Assembly (NCBI GenBank): GCA_038065495.1
Contig: JBBTQW010000002.1
Coordinates: forward strand, 261,373 to 325,372
Source of the DNA: Patescibacteria group bacterium
GTDB lineage: Bacteria; Patescibacteriota; Minisyncoccia; Phycocordibacterales; JACOZG01
DNA length: 64,000 bases
Direction of reading: 5' to 3'
Within the stretch, counting starts at the first letter, position 1; the number at the start of each line of letters is the position of its first letter. This document shows positions 37,746 through 53,208 of the stretch, piece by piece. Under the pieces are notes generated by a model, which did not search any database, was not told the origin of the DNA, and was given only the letters and a program-made list of their open reading frames with translations. Position numbers and translations under genes: made by a program.

Positions 37746-38207
37746 CTACTTCACTTCTATCAAGAAAGTGGCTGCCCCAGTTTGCTTAGTCAGATTAGTC
37801 GCCGAAGCTTTTATCAAGTATTTGCCGGCAGTTTTATAAGTGTGATTAAAAGTCACCAATTGCTCGTGCTGGCCGGATAAATGTGACGGCGTAAGAGTGA
37901 AGTTGGCCAAGCCATCGCCCCAGTCCAGGCGATAAGTCATCGGCGCGTCTTGTTGCTCGGTGGCTACCAGCGTCCACTGGCCATTCTCACCCACTGCAAT
38001 TGTCTCCGGACCAGTAATAGAACTAACAATGGGGCCAAGAATTAGCGCACTAGCCGTAACAGCCGGCTTCTGACTCTGCCGGGCGACGATGAGCTGGAGA
38101 ATCGCTAAGATCTGCTCGCGTGGCGTGCTGGCGGCACTGGTAAGAACTGGCACGATTACTGACGCCATCACTAGCGTCAGTAAGAATATTTTTAATTTTT
38201 TAGTCAT
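37746..38207 (-). CDS. Small secreted protein with a PKD domain.
   Basis: Signal peptide, YRLDWGDGLANFT...FNHTYKTAGKYLIKASATN, 153 aa. Confidence 0.65.
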   Translation of the reverse strand: MTKKLKIFLLTLVMASVIVPVLTSAASTPREQILAILQLIVARQSQKPAVTASALILGPIVSSITGPETIAVGENGQWTLVATEQQDAPMTYRLDWGDGLANFTLTPSHLSGQHEQLVTFNHTYKTAGKYLIKASATNLTKQTGAATFLIEVK

Positions 38208-40333: not shown

Positions 40334-40954
40334 TTACGCACTTCCCACGATTAGCTTAAACAGTCCAAAAACAAGAGATTCGAGAACCGTTGTAGAAGAA
40401 ATCAGAAACAAGAAAATGATCAGAATAATCAGCTGATAGCGTTGCCAGAACGCCTCAAACCAGTGGAACGAAGCCGGCAAAATGGCAAAAAGTACTTTTG
40501 AGCCATCTAGCGGCGCGATGGGCAAGAGATTGAAAACCGCGAGCATAATATTGAGCAAGATGAGCGAAGCGACGAGTGAAACAGCACTAGCCGGCAAGAG
40601 CGCCGCGCGCGCGAGGAGGCCAAAGATGATGGCGATCAACAAGTTGACACCTGGGCCAGCGAGAGCCACGAGCGCCGGCCCCCACTTGCCCGCCCGCAGA
40701 TTGTACGGATTATACGGCACCGGCTTGGCCCAGCCGAAGATGAATCCGCCCGGCAAGAGCCAGAGCACAAAGGGCACGAGCAATGAGCCAATCGGATCGA
40801 TGTGCTTGAGCGGATTGAGCGTGAGCCGGCCAGCCAGGCGCGCCGTGGGGTCGCCGAGCAAATCTGCCACGTAGCCGTGAGCCACCTCGTGCAGAACAAC
40901 AGAAATGACTAAAATCAGGATTAAGAAAACCGGATCAAGAGCAAATGGTTGCAT
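40334..40954 (-). CDS. Site-2-protease-family (M50B) membrane zinc metallopeptidase.
   Basis: VLHEVAHGYVA (HExxH) and LTLNPLKHIDPIGS. 206 aa with multiple TM helices. Confidence 0.75.
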   Translation of the reverse strand: MQPFALDPVFLILILVISVVLHEVAHGYVADLLGDPTARLAGRLTLNPLKHIDPIGSLLVPFVLWLLPGGFIFGWAKPVPYNPYNLRAGKWGPALVALAGPGVNLLIAIIFGLLARAALLPASAVSLVASLILLNIMLAVFNLLPIAPLDGSKVLFAILPASFHWFEAFWQRYQLIILIIFLFLISSTTVLESLVFGLFKLIVGSA

Positions 40955-41196: not shown

Positions 41197-42114
41197 TCAA
41201 GACTCCAGAAAAACCGGCTGTAGTGGCTGGTTTTTATTTTTGTCACTAATTTCAAAAACGATTGTGCCAGTTTGATTAGTCTGCAAAGTTTTGATATTTA
41301 AATTCTCGAAAGTGGCGAGAGTGGCTGGATAAGGATGGCCGTAGCGATTATCCGTGCCGACGGAAATTACAGCGTAACTTGGTGAGACTTTTTGCACAAA
41401 GTTTCTGCCCGAAGAAGTTTTGGAACCATGGTGGCCAACTTTGAGAATTATAGCTTCTAGTGATTGCTTATTTTCACTTTCATTTGCGCTGGCGATTAAT
41501 TTGTCTTCCAGATCAGTTTCCATATCGCCCGTGAGCATCGCCAACCCGCGGCCGTTCACAGTCAGCCTAGCCACGACCATGGAGTCGTGAATCTCTTTGG
41601 CACTGCGCCCACGCCAATCCTCGAACGGCGCCAGAATTTCTAAAGCTGCCCCACGCGCCAGACTAATTTTCTCACCACGGAACGCCGGGATAATTGGAAT
41701 TTTCTTTTCTGCCAGCAAGCGATGCCATTCGGCATAAATCGCACTGCTGTAGACGGCACCGGCTTCCATCACCGCGCCCACTTCGTACCGGTTTAGAATT
41801 TCCACCAAGCCCGCGATATGATCCGCGTGCGGATGCGAGACGATTAGCAAATCAAGTGACCGATCAGAGACGGGCATCAACGCTGGTAATCTGGCTAAGA
41901 TTTTCTGATCTGGTCCGCCGTCAATCAAGATCTGATGACCAACCGAATCCTGAATAAAAATTGCATCGCCCTGGCCGATGTCGAGCATCGCGAGCGTCAA
42001 TTTTCCGCCATGCTCGGCCAAAAAAACTGCACGCCAAACAAAAATATTAGCCAGAAATAAAATCAAGACTATCGCCCATTTGATTTTGGTAATTTTTGTT
42101 TTACTAAAAAACAT
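41197..42114 (-). CDS. ComEC C-terminal metallo-beta-lactamase domain protein (separate ORF).
   Basis: N-terminal TM helix, then LDIGQGDAIFIQ...LLIVSHPHADHIAGL (MBL HxHxDH). 305 aa. Confidence 0.75.
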   Translation of the reverse strand: MFFSKTKITKIKWAIVLILFLANIFVWRAVFLAEHGGKLTLAMLDIGQGDAIFIQDSVGHQILIDGGPDQKILARLPALMPVSDRSLDLLIVSHPHADHIAGLVEILNRYEVGAVMEAGAVYSSAIYAEWHRLLAEKKIPIIPAFRGEKISLARGAALEILAPFEDWRGRSAKEIHDSMVVARLTVNGRGLAMLTGDMETDLEDKLIASANESENKQSLEAIILKVGHHGSKTSSGRNFVQKVSPSYAVISVGTDNRYGHPYPATLATFENLNIKTLQTNQTGTIVFEISDKNKNQPLQPVFLES

Positions 42115-42145
42115 TTGACAAATTATAGCATCAGTAATAAGCTGG

Positions 42146-42312
42146 GTCCGACTGGCTGGGAGAAATCAAGTAAGTTTAACCTCCTTTCAGCCCTTGGTTT
42201 CTCACTTCGGTTCTCGCCCCCCGTCGGCGAGGATAGGTGAGGTCCAAACAGCCAGTCGGTGAGCTTGCGAAAGTTGTCTCCGGACAATCGTAACAAGCTC
42301 ATTTTTTTATAA
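42146..42312 (+). ncRNA. Candidate structured small RNA (~165 nt) antisense-oriented between the two comEC ORFs.
   Basis: Possible promoter: TTGACA at 42116..42121, 17-nt spacer, TAAGCT. An 11-bp perfect long-range stem (42148..42158 with 42249..42259) encloses nested helices (gagaaa/uuucuc, a CUUCGG tetraloop, cucgcc/ggcgag). It ends with a 7-bp hairpin (42261..42300) plus a U7 run. Confidence 0.4.
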
Positions 42313-42325
42313 AATAATTTTGTTC

Positions 42326-43789
42326 TTACTTCTTCTGACGATGGAAATAGTAATAAAATATATAAACCAGAACAGTTAACCAAAGTGGAAAGTAAGCAAT
42401 ATTAACAGAAGCAAACGGAATCTGAGCGGCAAATTTCGCTATTAGCAAATCATAACTAAGTAGTAAATAAGCGAGATAAGTGAATGGCGGGAACGGGAGC
42501 AAGAAAACCACAAAGCCGAGTAGCATGGTGAGTGGCACAAAACCCAAAACTAATAAATTAACCGGCAAAGCGATGAGCGAGAGATTGCCCATCTTGTACA
42601 AGATCCACGGTAGAACAGCTAACTGCGCAGAAAGGGTTGTAGTTGTCGTCTCGCGCAAACCAAATCTCTCGGGTAAAAATGCTAAATATTTTTTGATTAG
42701 CGGCGGTCCGGCGATCACACCAAGAGTGGCGAGGAAGGAAAGTTGGAAGCTGATGTCGGAAATTAAAATTTTCGGCTGGAAGAGGATCATCACAAAGGCG
42801 GCAAGGAAGAGCGCATCGAGTGACTGATAAACGCGACCAGTCGCTCGCGCGAGCAAGGCCACCAGGGCCATGATCGCCGCCCGCACGGCCGTGCTACTCG
42901 CGCCCGTGGCGAGCGTGAAGAGGATCACGCTCGCCCCGCCGGCTAGGATGCCGGCGAGCGGCGGCAAAAAGCTCAAGGCTTTGGCCGTCGCCTCGGCGGC
43001 AATGGTAATGTTGTAGCCGGATAACACAATCAAGTGCGACAAGCCAACAGTGCGGAAGCGTTCGCCCCAGTCCTCGCTCAAGCCTTTCGCCCCAATCGCA
43101 ATGCCAGCGAGGAGCGCGCTCTGCGGCTCGGGCAAACTGGACCCGAGCCGCCGCAAAAATAACTTTTTGAAGCCAAAAAGTTTGGCGCGCGCGCTCACCA
43201 CCCAGCTTTCATCCATGCCAATTTTTTCTATCTTGGGGTTACTGATGAGATAATAAATATCGTCTTTGGCCAGATAATTCTGATAATCAAAGGTTCGGCC
43301 CGCGTCGGTCTCAAAGTTTTCTGGTGCTTCCAGCTTGCCACTCACGCGCAAGCGCTCGCCATAAGCATGGCTCGGATATTTCCCGGCTGACAAAATAATT
43401 TTGCCGCCGGATTTCTTGTTTATTTCATCTGGCAAATCTGGTGAGAAAATTAGCCGCAAGCTGCTCTCGCGCTCGTCCGGCTCGCCCACCACCGTGCCAG
43501 TCAATTCTATTTTTTCACCAATAAACTGATCTAGATATTTCTCTGTTGGACCCAACGCCCGCGTGCCCCACATAGCACTGAGCGCAAAAATTAGCAAAAC
43601 AAAACTGACTAACTTAATTAAATTATTATTTTTCCCAGATTTTCTATACAACCAAAAAACTAAAAATAAAATGCTAGAAATTATTACTAGCAAAAATAAA
43701 ACTGTGAAATCAAAACGCACGAGCGTGCCCGCGCCAATGCCTACAAAAAAGCTCGCAAAAAATAAACTACGCCAGTTCATTCCCGCCAT
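42326..43789 (-). CDS. comEC: ComEC/Rec2 DNA-uptake channel (DUF4131 plus competence domain). No MBL domain in this ORF.
   Basis: Polytopic membrane protein. LSHLIVLSGYNITIAA matches the ComEC SHLLAISGLH motif. 487 aa. Confidence 0.75.
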   Translation of the reverse strand: MAGMNWRSLFFASFFVGIGAGTLVRFDFTVLFLLVIISSILFLVFWLYRKSGKNNNLIKLVSFVLLIFALSAMWGTRALGPTEKYLDQFIGEKIELTGTVVGEPDERESSLRLIFSPDLPDEINKKSGGKIILSAGKYPSHAYGERLRVSGKLEAPENFETDAGRTFDYQNYLAKDDIYYLISNPKIEKIGMDESWVVSARAKLFGFKKLFLRRLGSSLPEPQSALLAGIAIGAKGLSEDWGERFRTVGLSHLIVLSGYNITIAAEATAKALSFLPPLAGILAGGASVILFTLATGASSTAVRAAIMALVALLARATGRVYQSLDALFLAAFVMILFQPKILISDISFQLSFLATLGVIAGPPLIKKYLAFLPERFGLRETTTTTLSAQLAVLPWILYKMGNLSLIALPVNLLVLGFVPLTMLLGFVVFLLPFPPFTYLAYLLLSYDLLIAKFAAQIPFASVNIAYFPLWLTVLVYIFYYYFHRQKK

Positions 43790-46130: not shown

Positions 46131-46163
46131 GAGTTAGCATTATAGCAAATCGCTAAATAGAAC

Positions 46164-46493
46164 ATGGAAAACTGCATTTTTTGTAAAATCGCCAGTAAAC
46201 AGATTCCCGCCGAAATTGTCCATGAAGATGAGAATTTTCTCGCTTTCTTAGACATCAATCCCAAAGGGTCTCACCACACACTCTTGATTCCCAAAGCTCA
46301 CTATCACTGGTTCTACGAATTGCCGGATGAACTTTATGACGAAATGTTCAGAAAAGTGAAAACACTTGTGCCGATTCTTAAAGAAAAAGCCGGGGCTGAT
46401 TATGTAAAACTGGGAATTGTGGGCACCGACGTGCCGCATGTCCACGTCCACCTGATTCCCCGAAAGTTGTCAGAAAAAGATAATGTGATCTAA
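46164..46493 (+). CDS. HIT-family (histidine triad) nucleotide hydrolase.
   Basis: CIFCKI...HVHVHLIP. Confidence 0.85.
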   Translation: MENCIFCKIASKQIPAEIVHEDENFLAFLDINPKGSHHTLLIPKAHYHWFYELPDELYDEMFRKVKTLVPILKEKAGADYVKLGIVGTDVPHVHVHLIPRKLSEKDNVI

Positions 46494-51384: not shown

Positions 51385-53208
51385 TTATGGCGACATTAGA
51401 ACTTCGAAAGTTTGCCATGGCTGTGTGGCAGAAACAGAATTATTTTGGTAATTCTGATAACCGGTCGCCGTCACGTTGAGATTATAATCACTCGCGCTGG
51501 TGAGATTATTAAAGAAAACTTGTCCGGACGGTAGGCAACCCGAGCCGTAGACCAAGCTAACATCAGACAAGACGGGCGTGAAATTCGGATCAATCGTGGA
51601 GAAATAGGCGCGATAACGGATAAACTCGTCGCTATTGTGAATCGCATTGATTGGATCGCCAGAGACAGTGTAGAACGTGTTGCTCGTTCCATCCGGGCCG
51701 AGATAATTCCACGTGCTGGTGGCATTATCATTGCCCGTCGCGATTTGGAATCGGAGAGTTGTGGAAGCGCTCTGGGAGGCCGGTGTCCAGTTGATATTAT
51801 AGAACGCGCTGGCCGTGCTAGAGCCGGTGTCGAAAATTGAGGAAGTAAGCACACCGCTGGCCGAATAATTGCCGAAAACGGAGCGCAACTGCGCCTGACC
51901 GAGCACGCCAGCCGTGTCCACATTGCCGTCATCACTGAAGTATTGATTAGCGCTCACAAAGTCCACTTGCCCCGCGCCGCCCGACCAATCTGTCTGGCGG
52001 AAGAAGCCACGATTGGTCACGAGATTCTGACTAAAGCCGCCCCGCGAGAGCGTGACGCTAGCGTCGTCGATGGGCAAGAGACTGGCGGCATCTTTCACCG
52101 TCACCAGCAAGGCATTGGGATTGGCTGGCGCAGTAACCAGCAAGACATTCTGATCCGTATTGGGCGCAAGTGAGAAAGGCAAGAGTGGCACCGAACCAGC
52201 GAGATCCGTGCCGGCGTCACTCACACTCAAGCTGTAAGTGTCCCATTCTAGATTAGCGATAGTTTTGTGCCCAGCGCCATCCAGCGTGTGATTCTGATTA
52301 TATTTCAAAACATTGGGACTCGTGCCAAGTAATTTATTCCCCTGTAGATTAAAGCCGGCACTCGGCGTGCTCACGCAAGCACTATTGATACCAGAGAAAT
52401 TGATCTGACTGGTGCGATCAATCGAGAGCGTCACTTGTGTAACCTGACCAACAGAAACGGTGGAGTGCGGATTGACCGGATTGGGATTGCCCACCGCGCC
52501 GGCTGGATAAGTTCTATCTGTGGAATAACCGCTTTTGCTAACCGTGATCTCGTAAGCAAAGTTCCCGGGTGGCACATCAACTAGTTGGAGCATGCCGGCA
52601 TTGTTCGTCACATCATCAATACTAATCGCCGGATTAACTAAGTTGTTCGCAATGTGCACGTTTGCATTAGCCACTGGCTGACCATTGGCGTCTAGCACAC
52701 GCACAAAGAGCGCGCCGTTGCCACTGGAAGTTTCTAAACTCTTCGGTGCTACCGTAGCGACAAAAGCGAGCGGTTGCGCTAGTTTGCAGGCTGAACAATT
52801 CATGTCCAATTGCACGAGCTTATAATCCGCTGGACTCAAATCGTTTGGCGCACCGCCGATGGTGCCGTCGAAAATGTCGTCCACGTTACGCACAGTCGTG
52901 GTGGAAGTGAAAGTGATGCCAGCGTCCGTGACGTTCTGCACGCTCTGGATCAAGCCGTTCGGGATGCCGCCCACCTCGCCCACTTGGGCATAAGGCATAT
53001 TGCGGATAATCTCTAATTGTTGATTGGCCAGTAGAGTGGCCGCTGTCCGAGCACGCGACGCTTTGACCAGATCAGTAACCGCAAAGAAGCCCTGATAAAT
53101 CGCCAGCGCGATGACAGAAAATACAAACACGCCAACAAGTGTCTCTACCAACGTAAAGCCAGTTTTTCTATTTTTTAAATTATTTTTTTCTAAAAATTTA
53201 TTTGGCAT
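51385..53208 (-). CDS. Large type IV pilin-like protein (607 aa) with a prepilin N-terminus.
   Basis: KTGFTLVETLVGVFVFSVIALAIY, then a ~560-aa beta-rich globular region. 1 nt after pilC. Confidence 0.7.
   Translation of the reverse strand: MPNKFLEKNNLKNRKTGFTLVETLVGVFVFSVIALAIYQGFFAVTDLVKASRARTAATLLANQQLEIIRNMPYAQVGEVGGIPNGLIQSVQNVTDAGITFTSTTTVRNVDDIFDGTIGGAPNDLSPADYKLVQLDMNCSACKLAQPLAFVATVAPKSLETSSGNGALFVRVLDANGQPVANANVHIANNLVNPAISIDDVTNNAGMLQLVDVPPGNFAYEITVSKSGYSTDRTYPAGAVGNPNPVNPHSTVSVGQVTQVTLSIDRTSQINFSGINSACVSTPSAGFNLQGNKLLGTSPNVLKYNQNHTLDGAGHKTIANLEWDTYSLSVSDAGTDLAGSVPLLPFSLAPNTDQNVLLVTAPANPNALLVTVKDAASLLPIDDASVTLSRGGFSQNLVTNRGFFRQTDWSGGAGQVDFVSANQYFSDDGNVDTAGVLGQAQLRSVFGNYSASGVLTSSIFDTGSSTASAFYNINWTPASQSASTTLRFQIATGNDNATSTWNYLGPDGTSNTFYTVSGDPINAIHNSDEFIRYRAYFSTIDPNFTPVLSDVSLVYGSGCLPSGQVFFNNLTSASDYNLNVTATGYQNYQNNSVSATQPWQTFEVLMSP

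Follow-up and report, generated by a model that had tools for sequence, protein, structure and literature searches.

A probable small RNA gene, antisense to comEC and lying between its two halves, in a clade of Patescibacteria

Cis-encoded antisense RNAs with stem-loop recognition structures include CopA/CopT of plasmid R1, RNAI/RNAII of ColE1 and the chromosomally encoded GadY, and RsaE/RoxS (Rfam RF01820) represents the sRNAs with C-rich loops of Gram-positive bacteria. In the bidirectional promoters described from E. coli and Salmonella, sequence symmetry typically places one −10 element on top of the other. Divergent transcription is reported to be common at compact bacterial promoters (PMC10268837, PMC12825309), and mutually exclusive polymerase binding has been described at bidirectional promoters (PMC12825309). 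For the Patescibacteria/CPR, the literature searched contained no description of a regulatory RNA and no transcript data for the lineage studied here.

We analysed a stretch of 64,000 nucleotides (below, the window) of a contig from an uncultured patescibacterium, in which comEC is split into two halves. This gene is central to the DNA scavenging by which these bacteria are proposed to live. The 211-nt spacer between the halves (positions 42115–42325) houses an RNA element, which a first-pass annotation of the DNA had proposed as a novel structured sRNA candidate; the absence of an Rfam match and the covariation described below favour that proposal for the predicted transcript. The RNA of the comEC spacer is probably a new bacterial sRNA that runs from its own promoter to its own terminator, cis-antisense to comEC. 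The candidate combines covariation support with a fixed genomic address inside comEC, which is unusual, as is its promoter arrangement, and it comes from a phylum that has been little studied.

The flanking genes are indeed comEC halves, as had been claimed: Pfam distinguishes a ComEC N-terminal half (ComEC-N) from a separate gene for the metallo-beta-lactamase (MBL) half (Table 1). The MBL protein is a 100% match to the NCBI entry 'MBL fold metallo-hydrolase [Patescibacteria group bacterium]'. Its homologues carry the labels Nomurabacteria, Saccharibacteria and similar and the protein names ComEC/Rec2 or MBL fold hydrolase. On the strand of the comEC halves, an RNase H-like gene and recJ lie upstream. 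A retron ncRNA beside the gene annotated as 'RVT_3' was considered and discarded, since the product is an RNase H-type protein and not a reverse transcriptase. The minus strand carries 52 of the 58 long ORFs of the window, and the ORF list contains no plus-strand gene downstream of the RNA that could be a candidate for regulation. No minus-strand terminator separating the spacer from the ComEC-N stop (42326) was seen in the sequence, in its folding or with the scanner, so that read-through of ComEC-N transcripts into the spacer is plausible. The G+C content swings between 0.31 and 0.69 (200-nt windows) within genes at 42300–43700 (ComEC-N) and at 40500–40900.

Table 1. Coordinates of the features in and around the comEC spacer, numbered from the first letter of the window.
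Feature	Position	Strand	Basis or remark
MBL (metallo-beta-lactamase) half of ComEC, 305 aa	41197..42114	−	Pfam Lactamase_B 2.6e-12
ComEC N-terminal half (DUF4131 + Competence channel domain), 487 aa	42326..43789	−	Pfam Competence 8.5e-40, DUF4131 1.1e-22
Extended −10 TGCTATAAT of the MBL promoter (predicted)	42122..42130	−	7 nt upstream of the MBL ATG; inside the −35/−10 spacer of the sRNA promoter
sRNA promoter, −35 hexamer TTGACA	42115..42120	+	Read in the sequence; TTGAC(A/G) at the same place in 8/8 related spacers
sRNA promoter, −10 hexamer TAAGCT	42138..42143	+	17 nt after the −35; conserved in relatives
Predicted sRNA transcript, ~159 nt	42150..42308	+	Start inferred from the position of the −10, end from the U-tract
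P1, 5' strand CCGACUGGCUG	42148..42158	+	11-bp perfect helix in the MFE and centroid folds; closes the three-way junction
P1, 3' strand CAGCCAGUCGG	42249..42259	+	Pairs perfectly with CCGACUGGCUG
P2 hairpin	42160..42203	+	11-bp base GAGAAAUCAAG (42160–42170) / CUUGGUUUCUC (42193–42203), including GAGAAA/UUUCUC
P3 hairpin	42204..42243	+	Inner stem CUCGCC/GGCGAG (42213–42218 with 42226–42231), loop CCCCGUC
Intrinsic terminator	42260..42308	+	Basal stem UGAGCUUG (42260–42267) / CAAGCUCA (42294–42301), 8 bp; U7 at 42302–42308

Most of what had been read in the element stands. The promoter-like TTGACA-17-TAAGCT, the 11-bp perfect long-range helix (P1) and the terminator hairpin with its UUGUC-UCCG-GACAA apical stem and U7 are all in the sequence on the plus strand, and the claimed GAGAAA/UUUCUC and CUCGCC/GGCGAG internal helices correspond to the base of P2 and to the inner stem of P3. 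One feature has to be withdrawn: the CUUCGG tetraloop hairpin is absent from both the MFE and the centroid folds and has no counterpart in relatives, and its bases are predicted to pair with UGAGGU as the outer extension of P3. With this extension, which contains G-U pairs, and the inner stem, P3 has about 15 pairs in total. The apical region of P2 presents ACCUCCUUUC (42179–42188). The −10 hexamer agrees with the consensus TATAAT at three of six positions (T1, A2 and T6). In the relative L002, the two outermost P1 positions (42148–42149) are unpaired, which fits a transcript start near 42150. The U7 tract ends 18 nt short of ComEC-N; read on the minus strand, the hairpin has A7 before it and no U-run after it, so the predicted terminator would act on plus-strand transcription only.

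The plus strand folds with −69.7 kcal/mol against −48.1 ± 4.0 kcal/mol for 200 dinucleotide shuffles (z = −5.4), and none of the 200 is as stable. A stable fold is also found for the minus strand (−63.3 kcal/mol, z = −4.5). A generic promoter/terminator scanner called neither the sRNA promoter nor the terminator, the latter because its long interrupted hairpin lies beyond the loop limit of the scanner; the credibility of both signals rests on their conservation in relatives.

Homologues were found with the MBL protein of the window, and their contigs were fetched and the spacers compared. Six relatives carry the promoter and RNA as a unit between ComEC-N and MBL, antisense as in the window, with MBL identities to the window of 91% (L002), 80% (L007), 77% (L003), 57% (L008), 56% (L021) and 54% (L025). 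The unit consists of TTGACA, a 17-nt spacer, TAnnCT, the closing helix, two hairpins and the terminator with its U-run. Variants of the −10 hexamer are TAAGCT, TAGACT, TAGTCT, TAGGCT and TACACT, with T1, A2, C5 and T6 invariant, and the −35/−10 spacing in the eight loci compared is 17 nt except for 16 nt in L023. This last relative (MBL identity 60%) has an intact promoter block, TTGACG-16-TACACT with TATAAT 7 nt before the MBL ATG, and after it only a 4-bp hairpin UUGGUCGGCCAA with a U-rich tail (L023:2416–2500, minus strand of the locus). We read this copy as a minimal or decayed version of the element, and the structured body is evidently dispensable there.

The whole block is missing from five further relatives (MBL identities of 70% in L004, 61% in L019, 60% in L024, 58% in L022 and 50% in L026), where the comEC halves overlap or, in L026, are separated by 21 nt. 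In a neighbour-joining tree of the MBL proteins, the RNA-less taxa are nested within the RNA-bearing clade, which indicates that the RNA is ancestral to the clade and that several joint losses of RNA and promoter took place. In the window, the spacer is flanked by an imperfect direct repeat of 16 nt (42090–42105 and 42315–42330); read on the minus strand, AGTAAAACAAAAATTA lies in MBL codons 4–9 and AGTAAGAACAAAATTA spans the ComEC-N stop. This repeat may have survived from an old insertion or duplication or have arisen by chance in A-rich sequence, and it is unconvincing in L003 and L007. A recent mobile-element insertion as the origin of the spacer was rejected, given the MBL tree and the lack of a convincing repeat in these two relatives.

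The known range of the RNA is seven metagenomic contigs of one clade. Metagenome scans with the conserved promoter pattern gave no matches for further members, and a scan of a genome collection with the MBL protein added L008 as the sole new case among close relatives. A loosened promoter pattern gave 86 generic promoter-like matches on viral contigs, and blastn against phage records gave no match to the element. No paralogue of the RNA was found in the 64-kb window, where the only other hairpin with a CGGCCC loop is a 6-bp one near 51700 on the minus strand (51695–51712); it lies within a 607-aa ORF (51385–53208) and was judged to be due to chance.

Folded singly, all seven members form the P1–P2–P3 three-way junction and the terminator (z from −4.7 to −6.7), at element lengths from 84 nt (L021) to 161 nt (window). 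The architecture is kept in all six relatives with abundant compensatory changes. Since MAFFT misaligned the helices, also in N-padded versions, segments of the seven sequences, which represent about three to four lineages, were aligned by hand around the structure and pairs were counted in Python; a second count, with a pair-count tool, used a skeleton alignment that had constant spacers in place of the unpaired segments. In this hand-made, structure-guided alignment, which inflates pair counts, 98.6% of 210 cells form a standard pair (63.0 ± 2.8% after shuffling, 40–45% with the partner slid by 1–3 columns), 31 of the 36 pairs are changed on both sides (17.5 and 3–7, respectively), and the covariation score is 0.78 (0.23 and 0.07–0.10). 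None of 500 shuffles reached the observed value on any measure. The unbiased support comes from the single-sequence folds.

All five helices contribute: 11 of 14 pairs are changed on both sides in P1 (helices 1–2), and covariation is seen in six of seven pairs of the P2 base (helix 3), all six of the P3 inner stem (helix 4) and eight of nine of the basal stem of the terminator (helix 5), whose hairpin and U-run are present in all seven members. P1 occurs as at least five unrelated sequences (CCGACUGGCUG, GGUaGGUCGUC in L003/L007, GGUUGGCGAUCU, GUUGAGuuCUCC and GGUCCCC); it is wholly different in L003/L007, L008, L025 and L021, with pairing retained. The P3 loop is CGGCCC in L003, L007, L021 and L025 and GGCCC in L008, on a stem that covaries, and it is replaced by CCCCGUC in the window and by AAAC in L002. 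In six of the seven members, P2 has a CCU-containing pyrimidine loop whose bases are mostly unpaired in the predicted ensemble. The RNA body is 35–43% identical to that of L003 against 72–85% for the flanking coding DNA, and no 60-nt bin of the region diverges more from L002 than its 3' half, at 52% identity. To judge from these alignments, selection acts on the helices, a few loop motifs and the promoter. A covariance model built from the single sequence of L021 found other members only at E values of 0.27–0.97 and missed the copy in the window, and it was not relied on.

Two further sequence features concern the relatives. Between the window (41500–43000) and L002, identity is mosaic, blocks of 100% alternating with blocks of 77–88%, which suggests inter-strain recombination or locally accelerated change. 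In L021 (2382–2433) and L003 (2326–2400), both on the minus strand, the GGCCC of the P3 loop is complementary to GGGCC in the 5' foot of the terminator. This complementarity, which the copy in the window does not have, allows a putative pseudoknot or alternative anti-terminator fold, and the self-complementary GGCC makes kissing dimers possible.

Several observations indicate that the RNA is read from the plus strand, where it had been placed at the outset. There are eight G-U pairs against one A-C in the plus-strand reading, the plus strand is more stable in six of the seven members (in L003 the minus strand is slightly better), and the U-run after the terminator hairpin occurs on the plus strand only, in all seven. 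The T1, A2, C5 and T6 of the −10 hexamer are invariant despite their position in the non-critical spacer of a minus-strand promoter.

This second, predicted promoter belongs to the MBL gene, and its block on the minus strand reads TGCTATAAT-TTGTCAA-ATG. All RNA-bearing relatives and L023 have TGnTATAAT or TATAAT 7–9 nt before the MBL ATG. An extended −10 only 7 nt before the start codon implies a leaderless MBL mRNA. TGnTATAAT is found at the same distance of 7–9 nt before the ATG of recJ (46130, minus strand) and of the ORFs ending at 38207 and 56189, which are operon-first genes, and an SD-like motif (GGAG, GAGG or AGGA at −25 to −4) precedes only three of the 58 ORF starts of the window. 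Together, the rarity of SD motifs and the closeness of TGnTATAAT to the ATG indicate that this genome relies as a rule on leaderless or SD-less initiation. A 33-nt divergent spacer of like design (46131–46163) separates recJ from a plus-strand ORF at 46164.

The two promoters of the comEC spacer are interleaved: the plus-strand −35 covers the minus-strand start site, and RNA polymerase would therefore occupy only one promoter at a time. Unlike in the E. coli and Salmonella promoters described above, the −10 elements are separate (42122–42127 on the minus strand and 42138–42143 on the plus strand), the plus-strand promoter has a perfect −35 of its own, and the predicted products are a leaderless mRNA and a structured sRNA. 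What the locus shares with the bidirectional bacterial promoters of PMC12825309 and PMC10268837 is a pair of start sites on opposite strands, here about 36 bp apart, with interleaved elements. All five RNA-less relatives also lack the MBL promoter block, so that the RNA occurs only at loci where MBL has its own predicted leaderless promoter. At L004, the only RNA-less junction inspected for an SD motif, an SD-like GAGGAG precedes the overlapping MBL start, and MBL may be translated there by coupling to ComEC-N.

That the element is a genuine, structure-constrained and independently transcribed RNA gene appears highly probable from these comparisons. For its mode of action we propose, tentatively and as something short of probable, a combination of cis-antisense pairing and promoter competition. 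The sigma-70-type promoter TTGACA-17-TAAGCT would start plus-strand transcription at about 42150 and yield a product of about 159 nt, a three-way junction in which P1 closes P2 and P3, with the intrinsic terminator ending it before antisense entry into ComEC-N. The sRNA would regulate the expression of comEC in cis. Any ComEC-N transcript extending through the spacer would be its perfect complement, and the model assumes that such read-through takes place. Exposed hairpin loops would nucleate a duplex with the read-through comEC mRNA, and the ensuing processing would uncouple the channel half from the nuclease half. Firing of the sRNA promoter would at the same time compete with firing of the MBL promoter, and pairing and competition together would uncouple the nuclease half from the channel half or adjust the one to the other.

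This proposal resembles CopA/CopT, RNAI/RNAII and GadY in that the RNA is small, has its own predicted promoter and intrinsic terminator, forms stable hairpins with exposed loops, and lies opposite its presumed target with helices kept while the sequence drifts. Such drift is tolerated by a cis-antisense RNA because target and regulator are the same DNA. Unlike these systems, the RNA lies opposite an intercistronic spacer and not a leader or coding region, it is a closed three-way junction and not a set of simple tandem hairpins, no sequence homology to them was detected, and its target, the read-through comEC mRNA, is presumed. The CGGCCC loop, invariant in four relatives on a covarying stem, is a feature that cis-antisense action does not need and hints at a sequence-specific contact with a trans target or a protein.

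A base-pairing sRNA acting in trans, whose C-rich loops would seed on mRNAs elsewhere and for which comEC would be a mere conserved address, is a somewhat unlikely alternative. As a stand-alone gene with predicted promoter and terminator, the element has the makings of one, with candidate seeds in the CGGCCC loop of P3 in relatives (GGCCC in L008) and in the P2 loop CCUCCUUUC or another CCU-rich loop, predicted to be unpaired. Its layout of two hairpins with C-rich loops and a terminator would also resemble that of RsaE/RoxS, with which it shares a size of about 100–160 nt and C/U-rich loops (CCUCCU, CGGCCC) followed by the terminator; unlike RsaE/RoxS, it has no Rfam match, its loops are not conserved across the family and its host is nearly SD-less. 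Shine-Dalgarno targets are thus nearly absent, the replacement of the P3 loop in the window copy and in that of L002 is atypical of a seed, none of the 58 start regions stood out as a target in a duplex screen with the P2 loop, and the loss of the RNA whenever the MBL promoter is lost ties it to its locus. An anti-Shine-Dalgarno mimic, suggested by the resemblance of the P2 loop ACCUCCUUUC to the 16S 3' tail, was downgraded because the genome barely uses SD sequences. Another alternative is a by-product of a bidirectional MBL promoter, with an insulator that stops antisense transcription into ComEC-N and no regulatory role. Divergent transcription is common at compact bacterial promoters (PMC10268837, PMC12825309), the promoter block, mini hairpin and U-run of L023 would be the minimum for an insulator, and the RNA has been lost repeatedly and evolves fast in primary sequence. 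We nevertheless consider this reading unlikely: a terminator alone would do, yet 23 of the 27 pairs of P1–P3 have been changed in a compensatory manner in the lineages compared, the specific CGGCCC loop is retained, and the perfect TTGACA is conserved at the right spacing while the extended −10 of the minus strand needs no −35.

The functional molecule might instead be the minus-strand comEC mRNA, in which the spacer would affect processing or stability between the cistrons or prevent translational coupling, the plus-strand signals being incidental. The spacer sits precisely where two cistrons of the same pathway meet, its helices are strand-symmetric except for G-U pairs, and the minus strand folds well, slightly better than the plus strand in L003. 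This reading is nonetheless quite improbable, since eight plus-strand G-U pairs would become C-A mismatches and the converse holds in one case, the plus strand is the more stable in six of the seven members, the conserved U-run and −35/−10 make sense only on the plus strand, and MBL has its own predicted promoter 7 nt before its ATG. A divergent housekeeping or catalytic RNA missed by Rfam (SRP, 6S, tmRNA, RNase P, a hammerhead-like ribozyme, a riboswitch or a tRNA-like RNA) can be set aside almost entirely, even though divergent RNAs are possible in the CPR and the element has the shape of a three-way junction. Rfam 15 at gathering thresholds is empty for the whole 64 kb, gives only chance-level matches in the region 42000–42420 at E ≤ 10 (E 0.37–9) and nothing on the element in the six homologous loci at E ≤ 1, in keeping with the original remark that the element does not match SRP, tmRNA, RNase P or 6S; ARAGORN finds no tRNA or tmRNA genes in the window. 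The junction strands vary in length and sequence with the lineage (J12 is G, AC, A or AUGA; J23 is absent, A, ACC or CGC; J31 is CCAAA, ACAA, UC, AC, GUU or absent), which leaves no ribozyme or riboswitch core, catalytic or ligand-binding; in L021 the core measures no more than about 53 nt, no plus-strand gene follows downstream, and repeated loss in close relatives is unexpected for a housekeeping RNA. A small protein was also rejected, as the members, with lengths of 84–161 nt and indels, share no ORF or common reading frame.

Taken together, the narrow range and the inferential basis of the function make the RNA a solid new family rather than a surprise. The sRNA is linked, in a testable way, to expression of the nuclease half through the leaderless promoter interleaved with its own, both being lost together, and our preferred reading is cis-antisense action with promoter competition. 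A more elaborate form, which we regard as speculative and unlikely, would be a compact RNA toggle, in which the promoter block gives either the leaderless MBL mRNA or the antisense sRNA, and kissing CGGCCC loops inactivate the read-through transcripts. If true, such a toggle would fix the channel-to-nuclease ratio; in organisms dependent on scavenged nucleotides, it would thereby perhaps also decide how much DNA is consumed as food and how much is retained for transformation.
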